Shown here piece by piece: positions 28,401 through 34,400 of a stretch of DNA of 64,000 bases. The position numbers were made by a program. The stretch covers positions 3,296,001 through 3,360,000 of the forward strand of contig CAWCKH010000004.1 of assembly GCA_963796055.1 (NCBI GenBank), read 5' to 3'. The DNA comes from an uncultured delta proteobacterium (GTDB taxonomy: Bacteria > Myxococcota > Myxococcia > Myxococcales > Myxococcaceae). Positions within the stretch are counted from its first letter, which is position 1, and each line of letters begins with the position of its first letter.

Positions 28401-31400
28401 TCGTGCGAGGTCGACGGACGACATGCGGCCGCGGCGAGGAGCAGGACCGGGAGCAGGGCAGGGCGCATGTGACGTACCCTAGTCGACCGATGCTCGGGGC
28501 GACGGTGATCATCGGCATGGGGGGGCTCGGGTGTCCGGCGGCGGTGGCGCTCGCCGGGGCCGGAGCGCGCCGGCTCACGCTCGTCGACCCCGACCGCGTC
28601 GAGAGCTCGAACCTCCACCGACAGCCCCTGTACGGGCCCGAGGACGTCGGTCGATTCAAGGTTCACGTCGCCCGGGAGCGGCTCGCCCGGGCGTACCCGG
28701 GCCTGGAGGTCGAGACCTGGGTCCAGCGGGTCGGTCCGGCCGAGGCGGAGGCGCTCCTGTCCCGGCACGCCCTGGGCATCGACGGCACCGACTCGGTCGA
28801 GGCCAAATTCCAGATGTCCGACGCGGTGGCCCGCACCGGAACGCCGCTCGTCTCGGGCGGGGTGGTCCAGTGGGGCGGCCAGGCGATGCGCATCGACCCC
28901 GGTGGCGCCTGTCTGCGGTGTCTCTACGGCACCCCCCCACGCGAGGACGAGGTCCCCACCTGCGCCCGGGCCGGTGTGCTCGGCTCGGTGGCCGGCGTTC
29001 TCGGCGCGCTCCAGGCTTCCCTGGCGCTCGGACCACCGTCACCCGCCGGACGGAGCACCCTGCACGTGGTCGACGGACGGAGCCTGCGGTTCCGGACGCT
29101 CACCATCCGGCGCGTGCCCGGCTGCTCGGGATGTGGAGCACGGGCATGACACCGGACGCGCGCATCGACATCACCGCCGAGGTCTGCCCGATGACCTTCG
29201 TGCGCACCAAGATTGCCCTCGAACGGCTGCCGGTCGGCGGCGTCCTCGAGGTCCGGCTGAAGGGAGACGAGCCGCTGCGGAACGTCCCCCACAGCGCCCG
29301 GGACCAGGGGCACACCGTGCTCGGGCTCGAGCCGCTCGGGGACGGAACCTGGCGGCTCCTCCTCCGCCGCGAGGGCGGCAGGTGCTGACCGAGCCGCAGA
29401 TCCAGCGCTACGCCCGGCAGGTGCTGCTCCGCGACGTCGGCGAGCGTGGCCAGCAGGCGCTGGGGGCGGTCGGCGTCGCCGTCGAGCTCCCCCACGACGT
29501 GGCGAGCGCCGCGGCCGCGTACCTCCGCGCCGGCGGCACCGAGGTCCAGCTCGCTTCCGAGGGCGCACCCGCCTGGGCCCGCACCGCGCCCCTGCTCGCC
29601 TCCGCGCCGGTCGACCGCCTCCAGGCCCTCGCCGCTCCGGGTGCGCCGGAGCGCGGGGGCGTGGTGCTTGGTGCCCAGGGCGCCGCACAGGTGCTGTGGT
29701 CGATCGGCGAGGATGCTTGCCCGGGCTGTCTGCGTGGCGCCACCCGCGGCCTCGCTCCGCCCGCCCAGGAGAACTTCGCGAGCGTCCAGCTCGGCACCCT
29801 GGTCGCGCTGCTGGTGCAGCGGCGCGCGCTCGGACTCGCGCCGGCGATCGAGGGGCTCCGGGTGGACGCGTCCGGCGCCCTCTCCACGCTCGTCGCTCCC
29901 GCCTGCACGCACCGGCCGCCGCTCGTCCCGGAGCCGGTGCTCGCCGAGCTCGTCGCCCACCTCACGGCCGCGCTGCCGGACGAGGGGTGCGCGGTGCTGC
30001 TGGGGCGGGAGGAGGCCGTCCGCCTCGTGCCGATGCAGAACGCCCAGGCCGCCCACCACGCGCGCGATCCGGAGACGTTTCCGCGCTCCGCACGCCACGC
30101 GTTCAGCCTCGACCCGCGCGCCTGGCTGGCGCTGCTCCGGAAGGTCGACCGGACCGGTGAGCGTGTCCTGGCGATTGCCCACTCGCATCCCGATGGCAGC
30201 AGGCGCTTCTCGGCCGAGGACCGGCGGTGGGCAGCACCCGGCGGCCAGCCGCTCCTGCCGGGCGTGGCGCACCTCGTCGTGGCCTTCGAGAACGGCCAAC
30301 CACGGGGCGGCTGCTGGGCCGTGTGGGCCGATGGTGACTTCCTCGAGACCGACTGTCCGCTGCCGCGCCGAACCTGAACGATTCCAAGCGCTTGCGGTCG
30401 TCCGCCGACAGTCGATTTCCGCGGTTCGAATTGTCAAGGAAGCCGACTTCGTGTACACACAAGCCTGCGCAGCGCCTGGGTTTTCATGCGCTGGTACGAA
30501 ACTTGCTCGCCACCCGCGGAGTGTTCATGGCCCCGAACCAAGGCTTCACGCTCTGGCTGACCGGTATGTCCGGCGCCGGGAAAACGACCCTGGTCGACTA
30601 CATCGCCGCCCGGCTCCGCCAGGTGGCGCGTTCGGTGGAGGTGCTGGACGAGAACGACCTCGCCGAGGACCTCTGGGGCGGCACCGCGGACACCAAGGAG
30701 GAGCGGAACATCGGCGTGCGCCGGATGGGCCTCGTGGCCAACCTCCTGACTCGCAACCAGGTCGCGACCCTGGTGGCCTCGGTCAGTCCGTACAAGGCTG
30801 CGCGCGAGGAGAACCGGCGTCTCATCGGCCGCTACCTCGAGGTCTACGTCGATTGCCCCACCGAGAAGCTCATCCAGCGCGACTCGACCGGCAAGTACAA
30901 GAAGGCGCTCGCCGGGGAGATTCCCAACTTCGTGGGGATCACCGAGCCCTACGAGCCGCCCTCCTCGCCGGAGGTCACCATTCGCTCGGACGTGGAGTCG
31001 GTGGAGTCGGGAGCGCTCCGCATCTTCCAGGCGCTGCTGGACATGGGGAACGTCACCCCGGAGGAGCTGAGGGTCATCACCGGCAAGCGGATGAAGGCGA
31101 GCCCGCCGGCGCGAAAGGGCGCGCGCGCGCGGCCGGTCGCCCGGGCGGCCCGGGTCGCCAAGCCGCGCAAGGCCGGCAAGGGCAAGCGCTGACCGCGGGC
31201 GGAGTCCGGCAGCCGTGCTGACGTCCGCGCAGTGGCAGTCGCTGGTCGAGCGGAGCGCGCCGAAGCTCGTCCGGCTCCGCGAGGAGCTGCGGGGGCTCGG
31301 CTCGGCGCTGGTTGCGTTCTCCGGCGGAGTGGACAGCACCTTCGTCCTGCGCATCGCCCGGGACGAGCTCGCCGAGCGGGCGGTGGCGTTGACCGCCATC

Positions 31401-34400
31401 TCGGCGAGCGTCGCCCCGGAAGAGAAGCGCGAGGCGGAGGCGCTGGCGGCGGAGATGGGTGTCCGCCACCTCTCGGTCGACTCCGACGAGGTGAGCGATC
31501 CCCGCTACGCCGCCAACCCCACCAACCGCTGCTACTTCTGCAAGAGCGAGCTGTACACGCTGTGCACCGGGTGGGCGCGGCAGCTGGGGCTGGCGGCCAT
31601 CGTCGACGGGTTCAACGCCGACGACCTGCGCGACCACCGGCCGGGGCACCAGGCGGCGGCCGAGCAGGCGATCCGCTCGCCGCTGGCCGAGGTGGGGCTG
31701 ACCAAGGACGAGATCCGCGCCCACTCCCGCGCGCTCGGGCTGCGCACCTGGGACAAGCCGCAGATGCCCTGTCTGGCGTCGCGCATTCCTTACGGAACGG
31801 CGGTCACGGCCGAGCGGCTGGTGCAGATCGGCAACGCCGAGTCGGACCTGCGCGCGGCGGGGCTGCGCAACTTCCGGGTCCGGTACCACGGGGACATCGC
31901 CCGGCTGGAGGTGGCGGCCGACGAGCAGCACCGCTTCGCCGACCCCGAGTTCCGCGTGCGCATCCACCAGGCGCTCCGGGCCCGGGGCTTCACCTACGTG
32001 GCGCTGGACCTGGAGCCGTTCCGGTCGGGCCGGCTGAACGAGGCAGTGGGGCTGCCCTCCGCCGGAGCACACACCTGAGAGCCATCGGTCGCGCCGTGCC
32101 CGGGGCGCGCCCGTGGTGCCTCGCGCTCGCCCTGGGGATGCTCGTCGATCCGCGCCGTGCCCGGGCCGAGGAGGAGGAGCGGTTCGACCATCGCGGCGCG
32201 CTCGGGCTGCTGGTCGGCGGAGGCATCGACTTCAAGCGTGAGGTGAAGTCGGGTGGGGACACCGAGGAGGGCCGCCGGGCGCTGCTCGAGACGCTGCTCA
32301 CCTTTCCGCTCGGCGTGTCGGGGAACGAGTGGACCCTCGGGGCGCGTACCGGCTTCGGCGGCCCCTCGGTGGACGTGGCCGTCGCCGGCGGGCTCCGGGC
32401 GTACTTCGGAGAGGAGCGCTTCAAGACCTACCTCACCGCCGAGCTCGCGCTGCACGTCACCCCCAACGTGACCGCCGGACCGCGGCTCGGCGTCGGCATC
32501 CAGTACGAGCTGTTCCCCGTCTTTGGCCTCTACCTGGGCGGGGCGGCCGAGGTGACCGCCGGGCAGGGCATCCGCATCGCCGCGGCCCTGGTCGGCGGCA
32601 TCCAGCTCCGCACGTACATCTTCGAGTGAGCGGCCGGCGAAGAAGTTGACCCGTGGCCGAGACGTAGGACGATGTGCATCAAGGTATGACCATCTCCCAC
32701 CCCACGCCCCGCCTCACCTCCGTCGTGTTCCGGCTCACCCGGGACCGGCTGGAGGCGCTGAAGAAGCTCTCGCGCGCCACCCGCATCCGTCAGAGCGAGT
32801 ACCTGCGCGAGGCCATCGCCGACGTGCTGGCGAAGCACGAGGCGCCCACGGTTCCGTACGGCGTGTCGCCTCAGGCCTGATCCAGCGGCACGAAGGGAGG
32901 CTCGCCGGGCAGCCGCGGGGTGACCCCGGCGAATGGATCGAGCGCCCCGGGGTAGCCGACGGACCAGAGCGTGAGCCCGGCCGCCGGCGCGCGGAGCCCC
33001 TCGAACGCCGTCCCCAGGTCGAGCGCGCGCTCCCAGGTGCCATCGTCCACGAGCCCCGCCCCCACCAGCACCGCACCTCCGACGAGGAGCCGCACGCCGT
33101 AGCGGCCGAAGGCATCGCCGCGCAGGCCCACCTCCACCAGTCCGTCGTGCTCCCACCACGAGACGCCGTGCAAGGTCCGGGGGCGGCGCACGCTCGAGGC
33201 CGCGTGCAGCGCCGAGAAGTCGCGTGTGCCCACCGCACGCTGGAGCGCCCGCCGCATCCTTCCCAGGTCGATGGTACGGCCGGCGAGGCGGGGATGGACG
33301 GTGGTGTCCCACACCAGGCCACTCCAGCGCGCAGGCACCGCATCCGTCGCGAGCCGGTAGCGGTACTCCTTCGAGGCGCAGGACCACTGCGCGTGGAAGC
33401 CGTCGGGCGCGTCCACGGCCGCCGCCACTCCCCAGCCGTCGCCTCCGAGCGCCAGCAGCGCCGCGGGCGACGTCGCCGCGCTCACGCGCACGCTCACCGG
33501 CTGGCAGCGGGCGTGGACCCCGCGGTCGGTGCGTCCGGCGGCCATGGGACGCCCCGCGACGCCGCGCGCGGCGAGCGCCGCCTCGAGCGTCTCCTGTACG
33601 GACAGACCGGTCCGCTGGGACTGCCAGCCCTGGAACCGGTCGCCCCGGTACCACACCCACAGCGCCAGACGACGTCGCTTCACCGGTCCGGGCTCAGGGT
33701 AGACTATTTCCCTCCCACGCCATGGATTCGCGCAACGTCGACCACGCCGAGCACCCGCTCGGGGGAGAGTGGCTGTACCGCAAGGGAGAGCTGGTGCTCG
33801 GGCCGGTCCAGGGCGCGCAGCTGCTCGATCGGCTGTACGCAGGGGACATCAACGGCCAGACCGAGGTCGCCCTGGTGGGCGAGGACTTCGAGCGCGTCAC
33901 CCAGGTGGAGGCGCTCCGGATCCACCTCGCCAAGGCCGAGGCGAAGTGGCGGGTGGACGCGCTGGAACGGCGGGTGCGCGATCGGGCCCGCCGCCAGCGG
34001 AACGTCCGGCTGACGATGCTCGCCGGGGTGGCCCTGGTGGTGGCCGGCGCCGCGGGTGCGGTGGCGCGCTACATGGCAGTGCACGGCACGTTCGACACCC
34101 GCACCGAGGAGGCGGCCATCGCCGTGGAGCCGCCGGTCATCCGGCTGGCCAGGGCGCGGAGGCAGCAGGACGAGATGCTCGACTACCCGCTGGACAAGGG
34201 CGGGCGGAGGCCGACCGGGGCCACCGGCACCCGCCCCGCGGGCCTCGGGACCCGCTCCGGGCAAGGGGCCCCGGAGGGTGAATCGGACGACGTGAGCATC
34301 GAGGCGAAGTTCGACCGGGGGGCAATCCAGACGGTGATCGCCCAGCGGCAGCGGGCGCTCTACCCCTGCTTCGCCGAGGAGGCGAAGCGCTCACCCGGGC

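Follow-up and report, generated by a model that had tools for sequence, protein, structure and literature searches.

The window, a stretch of 64,000 nucleotides from an uncultured bacterium of the family Myxococcaceae (genome G000, 98.5% complete in 7 contigs), carries a run of five genes, encoding ThiF, TusA, a MoeB-N/JAB fusion, a CysC-like protein and LarE. All five lie on the forward strand and at the place given by the survey's finding from which this analysis started.

28490-29149, + strand: ThiF/MoeB-family adenylyltransferase, putative active half (AAD); PF00899, 185 bits, profile positions 24-236
29146-29388, + strand: TusA/SirA-family persulfide carrier with a CPMT motif; PF01206, 68 bits
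29382-30377, + strand: MoeB-N/JAB fusion gene, whole
29382-29900, + strand: degenerate MoeB paralogue, putative inactive half (IAD), fused in frame to JAB in this lineage; ThiF and MoeB profile matches, E 1e-26
29907-30377, + strand: JAB/JAMM metalloprotease domain with E201 and HSH...S..D; PF14464, 71 bits
30431-30459, + strand: promoter-like site TTGTCA-17-TACACA, 96 bases 5' of the CysC-like start
30527-31192, + strand: CysC-like gene, whole
30527-31081, + strand: APS-kinase-fold domain of the CysC-like protein; PF01583, 138 bits; model pLDDT 88, TM 0.88 to 5cb8
31082-31192, + strand: Lys/Arg/Ala/Pro-rich C-terminal tail of the CysC-like protein; 36 residues, net charge +15
31215-32078, + strand: LarE, [4Fe-4S] type; TIGR00268, 305 bits (cut-off 150)

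The CysC-like protein: fold, acceptor site and tail

Sequence, profile and fold searches with the CysC-like protein returned only APS kinases (for folds, among the matches listed), and its model superimposes on 5cb8 with an rmsd of 1.1 Å at 43% sequence identity. It shares with APS kinase CysC (PF01583; PDB 5cb6/5cb8, 7yq0, 4bzp) the fold, the P-loop, the Mg-binding Asp, the lid Arg and the YEPP loop. The TIGR00455 score of 154 bits exceeds the cut-off of 138.7, the NF002059 score of 189 falls under its cut-off of 244, and NCBI and JGI both name the protein an APS kinase. Even so, a normal APS kinase that merely differs in sequence is exceedingly improbable, given the residues that this protein has lost and the absence of an APS source in many of the genomes that encode it.

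We compared 91 divergent orthologue rows with 31 canonical APS-kinase rows at the APS-contact residues named in PMC4373884. The DGDxxR motif, which the survey had reported missing from the window protein (DENDLA at that position), is found in 31/31 canonical kinases and in none of the 91 orthologues. Four residues present in all 31 canonical rows are largely gone: the catalytic base D480 (N43 in the window protein; 34/91 divergent rows), R483 (A46; at most 1/91), F492, which forms the adenine sandwich with F576 (D55; 0/91), and K562, which contacts the 2'-OH and the transition state (T121; 8/91). With G63, these substitutions make up the degenerate APS site of the window protein; compared with CysC, it lacks the catalytic Asp and Lys, a sulfate-binding Arg, a stacking Phe and an Asn. 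The ATP site, in contrast, is intact (GMSGAGKTT, D41, R118): the P-loop Lys K456 (K19) and the lid Arg R559 (R118) occur in 91/91 divergent rows, GxxxxGK[ST] in 89/91 and the Mg-binding Asp D478 (D41) in 88/91. Parts of the acceptor pocket survive as well (R497 in 84/91, S524-Pro in 90/91 and F576 in 71/91), and the residue next after D478 is Glu in 65/91 rows, where it could serve as a new base. According to PMC8528679, mutation of either Asp of DGD in PAPSS abolished activity. The CysC-like protein very probably has no APS kinase activity, and the survey's suspicion to this effect is well supported.

The genomic context agrees. A profile search of G000 for PF01507 and PF01747 gave no match (the controls matched in 14 and 5 of 14), and E. 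coli CysD, CysH, CysI and CysJ as tblastn queries found nothing at E<=0.01; CysN gave only partial matches, at 25-39% identity across the GTPase part, which we read as translation GTPases. CysD, Sat and CysH were thus all absent by profile and tblastn searches, as the survey had claimed for ATP sulfurylase and PAPS reductase, and the CysC-like gene is the only PF01583 gene in G000. Neither CysD/CysH nor Sat was found in 28/50 sampled genomes of the order, yet these keep the CysC-like gene. Genomes that do activate sulfate mostly have a second, canonical cysC, which is patchy across the order and adjoins cysD where present. Since the gene is kept with or without sulfate activation, and its grip on APS has been lost, it probably has a different job.

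One such job would be the phosphorylation of another small acceptor (a nucleotide, nucleoside or sugar) outside the pincer pathway, the tail being only a localisation tag. Retention of the P-loop, Mg-binding Asp, lid Arg, R497 and Ser-Pro would fit this, as would the newly conserved M14, R29, K57, R102 and C110. Within the clade, however, no part of the protein is conserved less than the acceptor loop (the APS loop has a mean identity of 0.34, and one of 0.77 in canonical rows); conservation of the lid is about the same as in canonical rows (0.70 against 0.72). No new conserved motif appears in the acceptor loop across the 91 rows, positions 42-43 differ from family to family, and the searches point to no other kinase family. 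A variable APS loop beside a conserved lid is more readily explained by loss of the pocket than by a new pocket for a small molecule, and we regard a kinase of this kind as improbable.

Beyond the APS-kinase fold, the protein has an extra helix (residues 178-185) and then the basic tail, which is histone H1-like in composition. The Lys/Ala-rich tail described by the survey proved general: it is present in 88/91 orthologues, with lengths from 27 to 325 residues, and absent in three, one of which ends at a contig end. Only 4 of the 3166 genes called in G000 encode tails of this kind, one of them a CarD-like protein; according to PMC8156234, the basic disordered tail of myxobacterial CarD suffices as a DNA-binding domain. 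Whether nucleic-acid binding through the tail is the job of the CysC-like protein is an evenly balanced prediction.

Fungal ATP sulfurylase carries an inactive APS-kinase-like domain at its C-terminus (PDB 1i2d, 1m8p). It and the CysC-like protein both keep the APS-kinase fold without, in the latter case by prediction, APS kinase activity, but the two are the reverse of each other: the fungal domain is fused and has a damaged P-loop, whereas the CysC-like protein stands alone, with the ATP site kept and the APS site lost. Kti12 and PSTK use a P-loop kinase fold on tRNA and offer the nearest working parallel, in which a fold of the NMP-kinase type is joined to a basic C-terminal part and acts on nucleic acid. 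No specific homology was seen, however: the PF08433 match is marginal (22.6 bits) and canonical APS kinases match PF08433 too, the CysC-like tail is of low complexity and not a folded domain, and the listed folds are all APS-kinase folds.

The ThiF, TusA and MoeB-N/JAB genes

The AAD has GxGxxG, SNLHRQ, two CxxC motifs and the TCxxAG cysteine, and begins at strand 1 without an N-terminal RYxRQ arm; no such arm was found within 45 residues upstream at any of 74 AAD loci. The IAD has an RYARQ arm (29406-29420) and one CxxC, and is without the glycine-rich ATP loop. Its R9, R12 and Q24 are invariant in 34 rows, and a strict pattern recovers the arm in 65/78 IADs, the remainder being variants or falling at frame breaks or contig ends. 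Only 1/78 has the loop. The IAD matches the ThiF, MoeB, SAE1 and NAE1 profiles, and its model (pLDDT 90) has 1zud, 1zfn and 1jw9 as best folds. Arm and loop in one chain, the mark of a homodimeric ThiF/MoeB enzyme, are found in neither protein. Together they look like a split E1 for ThiS or MoaD, and the complementary motifs make it likely that the two pair. In eukaryotic heterodimeric E1 pairs the arm acts as an arginine finger, and SAE1-SAE2 and NAE1-UBA3 likewise combine an armless active half with an armed inactive half; the present pair differs in being bacterial, in belonging to a sulfur-carrier pathway without an E2 and in having been deduced from motifs.

The MoeB-N/JAB fusion noted by the survey is real at this locus but a local arrangement, found at 15 of the 65 loci having both domains. 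CPxT is kept in the 27 TusA rows examined, and the JAB domain is the only Prok-JAB above cut-off in G000. One closed genome (G358) has no ThiF-family enzyme other than the split E1, and no Ubl other than the ThiS encoded next to thiG; in G000 there is a second E1, of full length. The E1 of another genome, G369, has no clear arm and no partner seen within its locus, and in the sister order moeB is single and unsplit.

Transcription, descent and the link to larE

The 149 bases between the JAB and CysC-like reading frames contain the promoter-like site, which in relatives mostly reads TTGTCA-17/18-TATAAN. A score of at least 10 of 12 was reached in 23/88 upstream regions, where shuffled sequences gave 0.1; the copy in the window, with 8 of 12, is weak and under the threshold of the scan tool. 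In one RNA study, with reads from a related strain and no start site seen, sense depth was 367-732 in the two middle bins of the CysC-like gene, whereas the E1 cluster had 9-66 and larE 37-83, so that CysC-like RNA was about tenfold deeper than its neighbours and several-fold to tenfold deeper than larE. The single operon of all five genes that the survey had proposed is improbable: the promoter-like site and the RNA step both precede the CysC-like gene, and the E1 genes, which lie 5' in 31/40 order-wide loci, are gone from 9/40. Quite probably the CysC-like gene and larE are transcribed apart from the E1 block.

The CysC-like gene is a core gene of the Myxococcales and their sister order (PF01583 in 243/245 good order genomes). 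In Iyer, Burroughs and Aravind 2006 (PMC1779556), rows 4c and 4e show clusters of an E1 without rhodanese, SirA/TusA, Ubl, JAB, cysteine synthase and adenylylsulfate kinase. The cluster in G000 is, judging by its genes, a remnant of this known cysK-moeB-tusA-Ubl-cysM-JAB-cysC neighbourhood, whose full form occurs in families f2 and f4, some of f1 and the sister order. Compared with it, the G000 locus has no ATP sulfurylase or reductase, its E1 is in two genes, the kinase is degenerate, larE has been added, and Ubl and cysM are lost; order-wide, Ubl is in only 12/40 clusters and cysM lies 5' of JAB in 8/40 loci (3/3 in the sister order). Like cysC, the CysC-like gene is placed in the cysteine-synthesis cluster; unlike cysC, it belongs to the core genes whether or not ATP sulfurylase is present. 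It occupies the sat/cysC slot of the ancestral operon: G447 has the order JAB-usp-CysC-like-larE and G369 the order JAB-usp-sat/cysC, the two usp genes being 32% identical.

LarE carries SGGVDS, C106xxC109 and C186, and S36, G38, D40, S41, C106, C109 and C186 are invariant in 44 LarE rows. It shares SGGxDS and CxxC-C with the [4Fe-4S] LarE of T. maritima, for which PMC9283937 defines the latter motif, as well as having larB, larC and a LarA homologue in the same genome, and differs in being a fixed neighbour of a pseudo-APS kinase. As the survey had stated, larB, larC and a LarA homologue are elsewhere in the genome; an AIRC-domain gene adjoins larC, away from the window's larE, and the LarA homologue scores 838 with NF052592 (cut-off 740). 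The client of the nickel-pincer cofactor is probably ElbC (the NF052592 group), although PMC7583248 detected no activity in the one member that it tested.

No linkage in the region is tighter than that of larE, which directly follows the CysC-like gene in 53/53 family-level, 35/38 assessable order-wide and 3/3 sister-order loci, at a median gap of about 39 bases over all loci. The two are still adjacent in 6 of the 9 loci without E1 genes, and the pair outlives those genes in families f6 and f8. The CysC-like protein might thus be a dedicated partner of LarE, either as a kinase of a pincer nucleoside or precursor or as an ATP-dependent regulator or chaperone; its ATP site is intact, and larC occurs in 49/50 and a LarA-family gene in 47/50 sampled genomes. 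Both genes are core, however, so co-occurrence says little. One genome (G346) has the CysC-like gene but no match to larE, larC or larA, and another (G348) has larE with no match to the CysC-like gene, each a single, unclosed assembly, while G349 and G353 have larE elsewhere. The excess of CysC-like RNA and the acceptor loop without a new motif also tell against such a partnership, as does T. maritima LarE, which according to PMC9283937 needs only cysteine and IscS to work in vitro. We consider a dedicated partner possible but doubtful.

TtuB loads TtuA with sulfur in a way comparable to the relay that the survey proposed, in which ThiF, TusA and JAB would charge a carrier (as thiocarboxylate or persulfide) for delivery of the sulfur to the open iron in the [4Fe-4S] cluster of LarE. 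The frequent 5' position of the E1 genes is in its favour, as are the three-cysteine motif that accepts non-core sulfur and an in vivo donor that, in the part of the literature at hand, is not settled for [4Fe-4S]-type LarE proteins. The Ubl, however, is missing from G000's cluster and most others, which match gene neighbourhoods already known for cysteine and sulfur assimilation; ThiS and MoaD-MoaE are other clients of the E1 and JAB; G346 has the cluster's kinase without lar genes; four f8 genomes with larE and larC give no match to an IAD-specific query; and the promoter-like site and RNA step fall between the two blocks. The relay is rather improbable, and it is likely that LarE has no dedicated one.

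A proposed history of the locus

We propose, with middling confidence, that the locus comprises two units and a repurposed CysC-like pseudokinase with a nucleic-acid-binding tail. The first unit (ThiF-TusA-MoeB-N/JAB) would be a leftover of the cysK-moeB-tusA-Ubl-cysM-JAB cysteine-synthesis operon. Its split E1, an active half and an inactive half supplying the arginine arm, would activate general carriers, namely ThiS (thiamine), MoaD (molybdopterin) and, where one survives, a CysO-like carrier; TusA would be the sulfur donor, and JAB would cleave a MoaD-MoaE fusion, freeing its Gly-Gly end. The second unit, the CysC-like gene and larE, would have its own promoter. The CysC-like gene would descend from the operon's cysC and have stayed on once ATP sulfurylase was lost, its product becoming an abundant ATP-binding pseudokinase or ATPase with a macromolecule as its target, most probably DNA or RNA that the H1-like tail holds. 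The weaker-expressed larE would be a passenger that makes the nickel-pincer cofactor, probably for ElbC. In an unlikely but farther-reaching version, a single switch at the base of the class Myxococcia would have made a metabolic kinase into a protein that is abundant, binds DNA or RNA in an ATP-switched manner as a bacterial counterpart of Kti12, and belongs to the core of myxobacterial physiology; the larE co-transcript would tie nucleotide status to nickel-pincer supply for ElbC in ether-lipid synthesis.

A near-universal and apparently strongly expressed core gene of a bacterial class, the model Myxococcus included, is annotated as cysC and is almost surely not one; the label misleads calls of sulfate assimilation in myxobacterial genomes and hides a conserved protein. 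That protein appears to have kept ATP binding, dropped the APS site and gained an H1-like tail, a pattern opposite to that of the dead APS-kinase domains known so far. The locus would thereby record the dismantling of a cysteine-synthesis operon, with the E1 split, the carrier and synthase lost in many lineages and the kinase repurposed.

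Residues and tail of the CysC-like protein

The + strand run from 28490 to 32078 encodes an adenylyltransferase of the ThiF family, TusA, a fusion of a degenerate MoeB domain with a JAB protease, a protein resembling APS kinase (CysC-like) and LarE, confirming the five-gene arrangement of the survey's finding; the named relatives are Myxococcaceae. The genome (G000; 98.5% complete, 7 contigs) yielded no match to PF01507 or PF01747, the profiles for CysD/CysH and Sat (controls ring in 14 and 5 of 14), E. coli CysD, CysH, CysI and CysJ as tblastn queries found nothing in it, and CysN gave partial matches only, of GTPase type. 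These profile and tblastn searches bear out the survey's claim that ATP sulfurylase and PAPS reductase are missing. The sole match to the APS kinase profile PF01583 in G000 is the CysC-like gene of the window.

The structural model of the CysC-like protein (pLDDT 88) has a TM score of 0.88 to 5cb8, and an ESM Atlas search with the protein returned APS-kinase clusters only. We aligned 91 distinct orthologues (96 rows minus 5 duplicates, with one fragment excluded) with 31 canonical kinases (30 being the best PF01583 matches of the order and one from E. coli), and placed the APS contacts of the M. tuberculosis CysC structure (PMC4373884, in part) on the alignment by motif spacing. The orthologues keep the P-loop Lys (91/91), the Mg-binding Asp (88/91) and the lid Arg (91/91), as well as R497 (84/91), S524 (90/91) and F576 (71/91). 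The catalytic base D480 is present in only 34 of 91 and is Asn in the window protein, and the contacts R483 (1/91), the Asn of ENIRR (2/91), F492 (0/91) and K562 (8/91) are lost. The DGDxxR motif, which the survey had reported absent, occurs in 0/91 orthologues versus 31/31 canonical kinases; a change to either of its Asp residues abolishes activity, according to part of PMC8528679. Judged by its sequence, the CysC-like protein has kept an APS-kinase fold from which the APS site is gone. With DGDxxR absent throughout and catalytic residues lost, a true APS kinase is very improbable.

The protein could also be a kinase for another small acceptor. Mean identity of the APS loop is 0.34 within the CysC-like clade versus 0.77 in canonical rows, and conservation of the lid is equal (0.70 and 0.72). 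A switch to another small substrate would be expected to leave newly fixed residues in the loop, and none are fixed there, which counts against this reading and makes it a doubtful one.

A basic tail (net charge of at least +8) ends 88 of the 91 orthologues, in agreement with the survey's description. Such tails end just 4 of the 3166 called genes of G000, one of which encodes a CarD-like protein (family read from its N-terminal sequence):

G000:C4:2468338-2469225, - strand, CarD-like protein with Lys/Ala/Pro tail

The CarD C-terminal domain can be replaced by an H1 tail, as described in part of PMC8156234. By analogy with CarD, and from its composition, the tail of the CysC-like protein may bind nucleic acid. 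Codon adaptation does not single the gene out (0.73-0.75, versus 0.78 for larE). In six proteins (P0153, P0154, P0160, P0166, P0168 and P0177) a canonical APS kinase is joined to an ATP-sulfurylase region that is shortened or decayed; these fusions have 417-532 residues, a PUA_2 match and little or no PF01747.

Distribution and origin of the CysC-like gene

The tallies of PF01583 matches are 352 of 363 for all genomes of the order and 243 of 245 for the good ones; they count related, and so not independent, genomes and include one unpublished genome (G257), on which no claim rests. The best scores split into two groups. The weaker-scoring group is the CysC-like clade, found in 40/40 genomes hand-picked across nine families; the stronger-scoring group consists of canonical kinases with a patchy distribution. 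Coordinates were checked for six genomes, and in these the canonical kinase gene lies within a few kb of a PF01507 gene. PF01507 is missing from 32 of 50 sampled genomes, 28 of which, including three closed genomes, also lack PF01747. The CysC-like gene is part of the core gene set, and its presence does not depend on sulfate activation; together with the loss of catalytic residues and most APS contacts, this upholds the survey's view that its product is probably not an APS kinase.

The clade was also found in 3/3 sister-order genomes. It was not among the matches read from 17 genomes of other classes, all of which were canonical kinases or other tail-less forms. In a profile search of cluster representatives, tailed forms rank first and canonical kinases below. 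A quick tree places 33 divergent rows and two database proteins in one group (SH-aLRT 88, not strong), with the sister order as the first branch inside it.

In the sister order the cluster reads cysK-moeB-tusA-Ubl-cysM-JAB-(usp)-CysC-like-larE, where Ubl is a sulfur-carrier protein, and in G369, a genome of another class, it reads rrf2-cysK-E1-Ubl-cysM-JAB-usp-sat/cysC, ending in a canonical bifunctional enzyme. Such clusters correspond to neighbourhood rows 4c and 4e in PMC1779556, in the part of that paper covering them. The matching order indicates that the CysC-like gene occupies the slot of cysC in the described neighbourhood, and the gene likely descends from the cysC slot of the cysteine cluster. 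The G369 kinase is not sister to the CysC-like clade in the quick tree. We rejected two other assignments: the gene 3' of JAB in G369 is a Usp (32% identity to the usp product of G447) and not a hidden inactive E1 half, and the PLP enzyme that heads the full cluster is CysK and not threonine synthase. The E1 of the G369 cluster (L253, 9997-10827, - strand) lacks a clear RYxRQ arm, and that locus showed no partner gene for it.

A probable split E1 and the sulfur carriers

No RYxRQ arm precedes the first strand of ThiF, where the protein begins, in 74/74 loci; the MoeB-N domain has the arm in 65/78 by a strict pattern (the rest being variants, frame breaks and contig ends) and no ATP loop. The MoeB-N profile and model both match ThiF and MoeB. 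The two read as a split, heterodimeric E1, with ThiF as the predicted active and MoeB-N as the predicted inactive half. The eukaryotic heterodimeric E1 is a parallel, also for the role of the arginine arm. The E1 reads as split across the order and is unsplit in the sister order. In six loci (L030, L032, L033, L039, L136 and L170) the active half and TusA share one reading frame, an apparent fusion. In genome G114 (L167:8298-9623, - strand), TusA, Ubl and the inactive half lie in one stop-free frame, and the Ubl Gly-Gly runs straight into the inactive half, a possible JAB substrate.

A CysO/MoaD-like carrier is present in 12/40 order-wide clusters and cysM 5' of JAB in 8/40; the G000 cluster has neither. 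The carriers of G000 are a ThiS whose gene precedes thiG and a MoaD-MoaE fusion that contains an internal Gly-Gly, and the genome also encodes a full-length rhodanese-MoeB. The window JAB is its only JAB above cut-off. Cleavage of a MoaD-MoaE-type fusion by a JAMM protease is known (PMC8832034, in part). The fusion is full length in 28/40 genomes. Eight loci have E1 genes and no JAB: the fusion is missing from four of these genomes, and of the remaining four, three carry a JAB at another site. The pairing of JAB with the fusion holds partly, since JAB occurs in G361 in the absence of a MoaE match, and in G360 alongside separate moaD and moaE. In G358 (closed) and G269, where MoaE was not found, no ThiF-family enzyme other than the split E1 was found, and ThiS, beside thiG, is the only carrier.

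Transcription, larE and a possible role

The gap 5' of the CysC-like gene is 149 bases in the window, with a median of about 155 in relatives. A TTGTCA-17/18-TATAAN-like site scoring at least 10 of 12 occurs in 23/88 upstream regions versus 0.1 in base shuffles, and at least 9 of 12 in 39/88 versus 3.3. Upstream of the four remaining genes and of the inactive E1 half, sites scoring at least 9 occur in 1/74, 0/65, 0/77, 0/66 and 0/89, controls that are mostly coding DNA. The window copy was seen by comparison of relatives only, and a consensus promoter scan of window 28000-33000 gave 0 sites:

30431-30459, promoter-like site, score 8 of 12

RNA depth was taken from raw reads of a related strain (3 runs from one study) mapped at 85% likeness on locus L262, where depth falls wherever the read strain and the locus differ. 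Sense depth is 9-66 over the E1 cluster, close to that of antisense reads. Within the CysC-like gene it is 90-110 in the first bin and 367-732 in the middle, and over larE it is 37-83; the reads resolved no start site on L262. The run is probably two transcription units with a break before the CysC-like gene, and the promoter-like site and depth step there do not support the survey's single operon from thiF to larE.

The window LarE belongs to the [4Fe-4S] type with three cysteines. In T. maritima, LarE of this type turns over when supplied with cysteine and IscS (PMC9283937, in part). Across the order larE occurs in 212/218 genomes, larC in 49/50 and a LarA-family gene in 47/50. As the survey held, larB, larC and a LarA homologue (NF052592) lie elsewhere in G000, larB-larC being far from both larE and the homologue:

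G000:C4:1468935-1470869 (L264), larB-larC, between a chemotaxis cluster and grpE-dnaK-like genes
about G000:C4 398715-402060 (L263), conserved LarA homologue, 540 residues, in the elbC position of an ether-lipid operon

In three relatives the homologue is flanked by a HAD gene on one side and an ElbD-like multidomain gene on the other, and in a fourth directly 5' of the latter, a FAR-ACS-ACP-acyltransferase gene in all four (L272, L273, L274, L275). In G000 it comes after epimerase and HAD genes, with no elbD behind it. The elbC product has been described as of unknown function (PMC9131029).

larE lies 3' of the CysC-like gene in 53/53 family-level loci, 3/3 sister-order loci and 35/40 order-wide loci (of the rest, 2 are cut off by a contig edge and 3 lack larE there). 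3' of larE, most of the order has a ribbon-helix-helix gene, truA, then a GYF-domain gene and clpX, the first two in the window being:

32686-32859, + strand, ribbon-helix-helix gene, 57 residues
32871-33683, - strand, truA

Because the conserved block also includes truA and clpX, gene order inside the family is weak evidence. Among the loci, L024 and L026, labelled Corallococcus and Myxococcus, are near-identical in CysC-like protein and gene spacing (possibly a mislabel), and L033 and L034 are the same locus on two contigs of one MAG.

E1 genes are missing from 9 of the 40 order-wide loci, and larE remains beside the CysC-like gene in 6 of these 9, which favours a unit of CysC-like gene and larE over a five-gene relay. 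The survey's ThiF-TusA-JAB sulfur relay to LarE, tied to nickel-pincer cofactor synthesis, is not borne out, and we consider it improbable. The same six loci speak for the CysC-like protein as a dedicated LarE partner. Against that role, G346 (family f8; 98% complete, 20 contigs) keeps the CysC-like gene with no larE, larC or larA match, G348 (also f8) carries a divergent larE and gave no match to the CysC-like gene, and larE is located elsewhere in G349 and G353; on balance we regard the partnership as unlikely, if worth keeping in view. Five further genomes have no larE match, two of them also lacking the CysC-like gene, which may be assembly gaps. A complex prediction for the CysC-like domain with LarE scored 0.00 in two runs and weighs neither way.

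The most likely reading, which we put at about even chances, is that the protein acts on DNA or RNA as an abundant switch or ATPase. Such a protein would bind Mg-ATP and close its lid, would leave APS unphosphorylated, and would contact nucleic acid through the basic tail and a conserved surface that is new (M14, R29, K57, R102, C110 and helix 178-185).

A description of this CysC-like paralogue was not found in the literature searched, a scope that most subscription papers and supplements fall outside. The protein probably works unlike CysC and falls outside CysC in the membership test, yet it has a known fold in a known cluster. G346 and G348 provide natural test cases for the link between the CysC-like gene and larE, and the gene itself very probably encodes a misannotated, class-wide and testable pseudo-enzyme.
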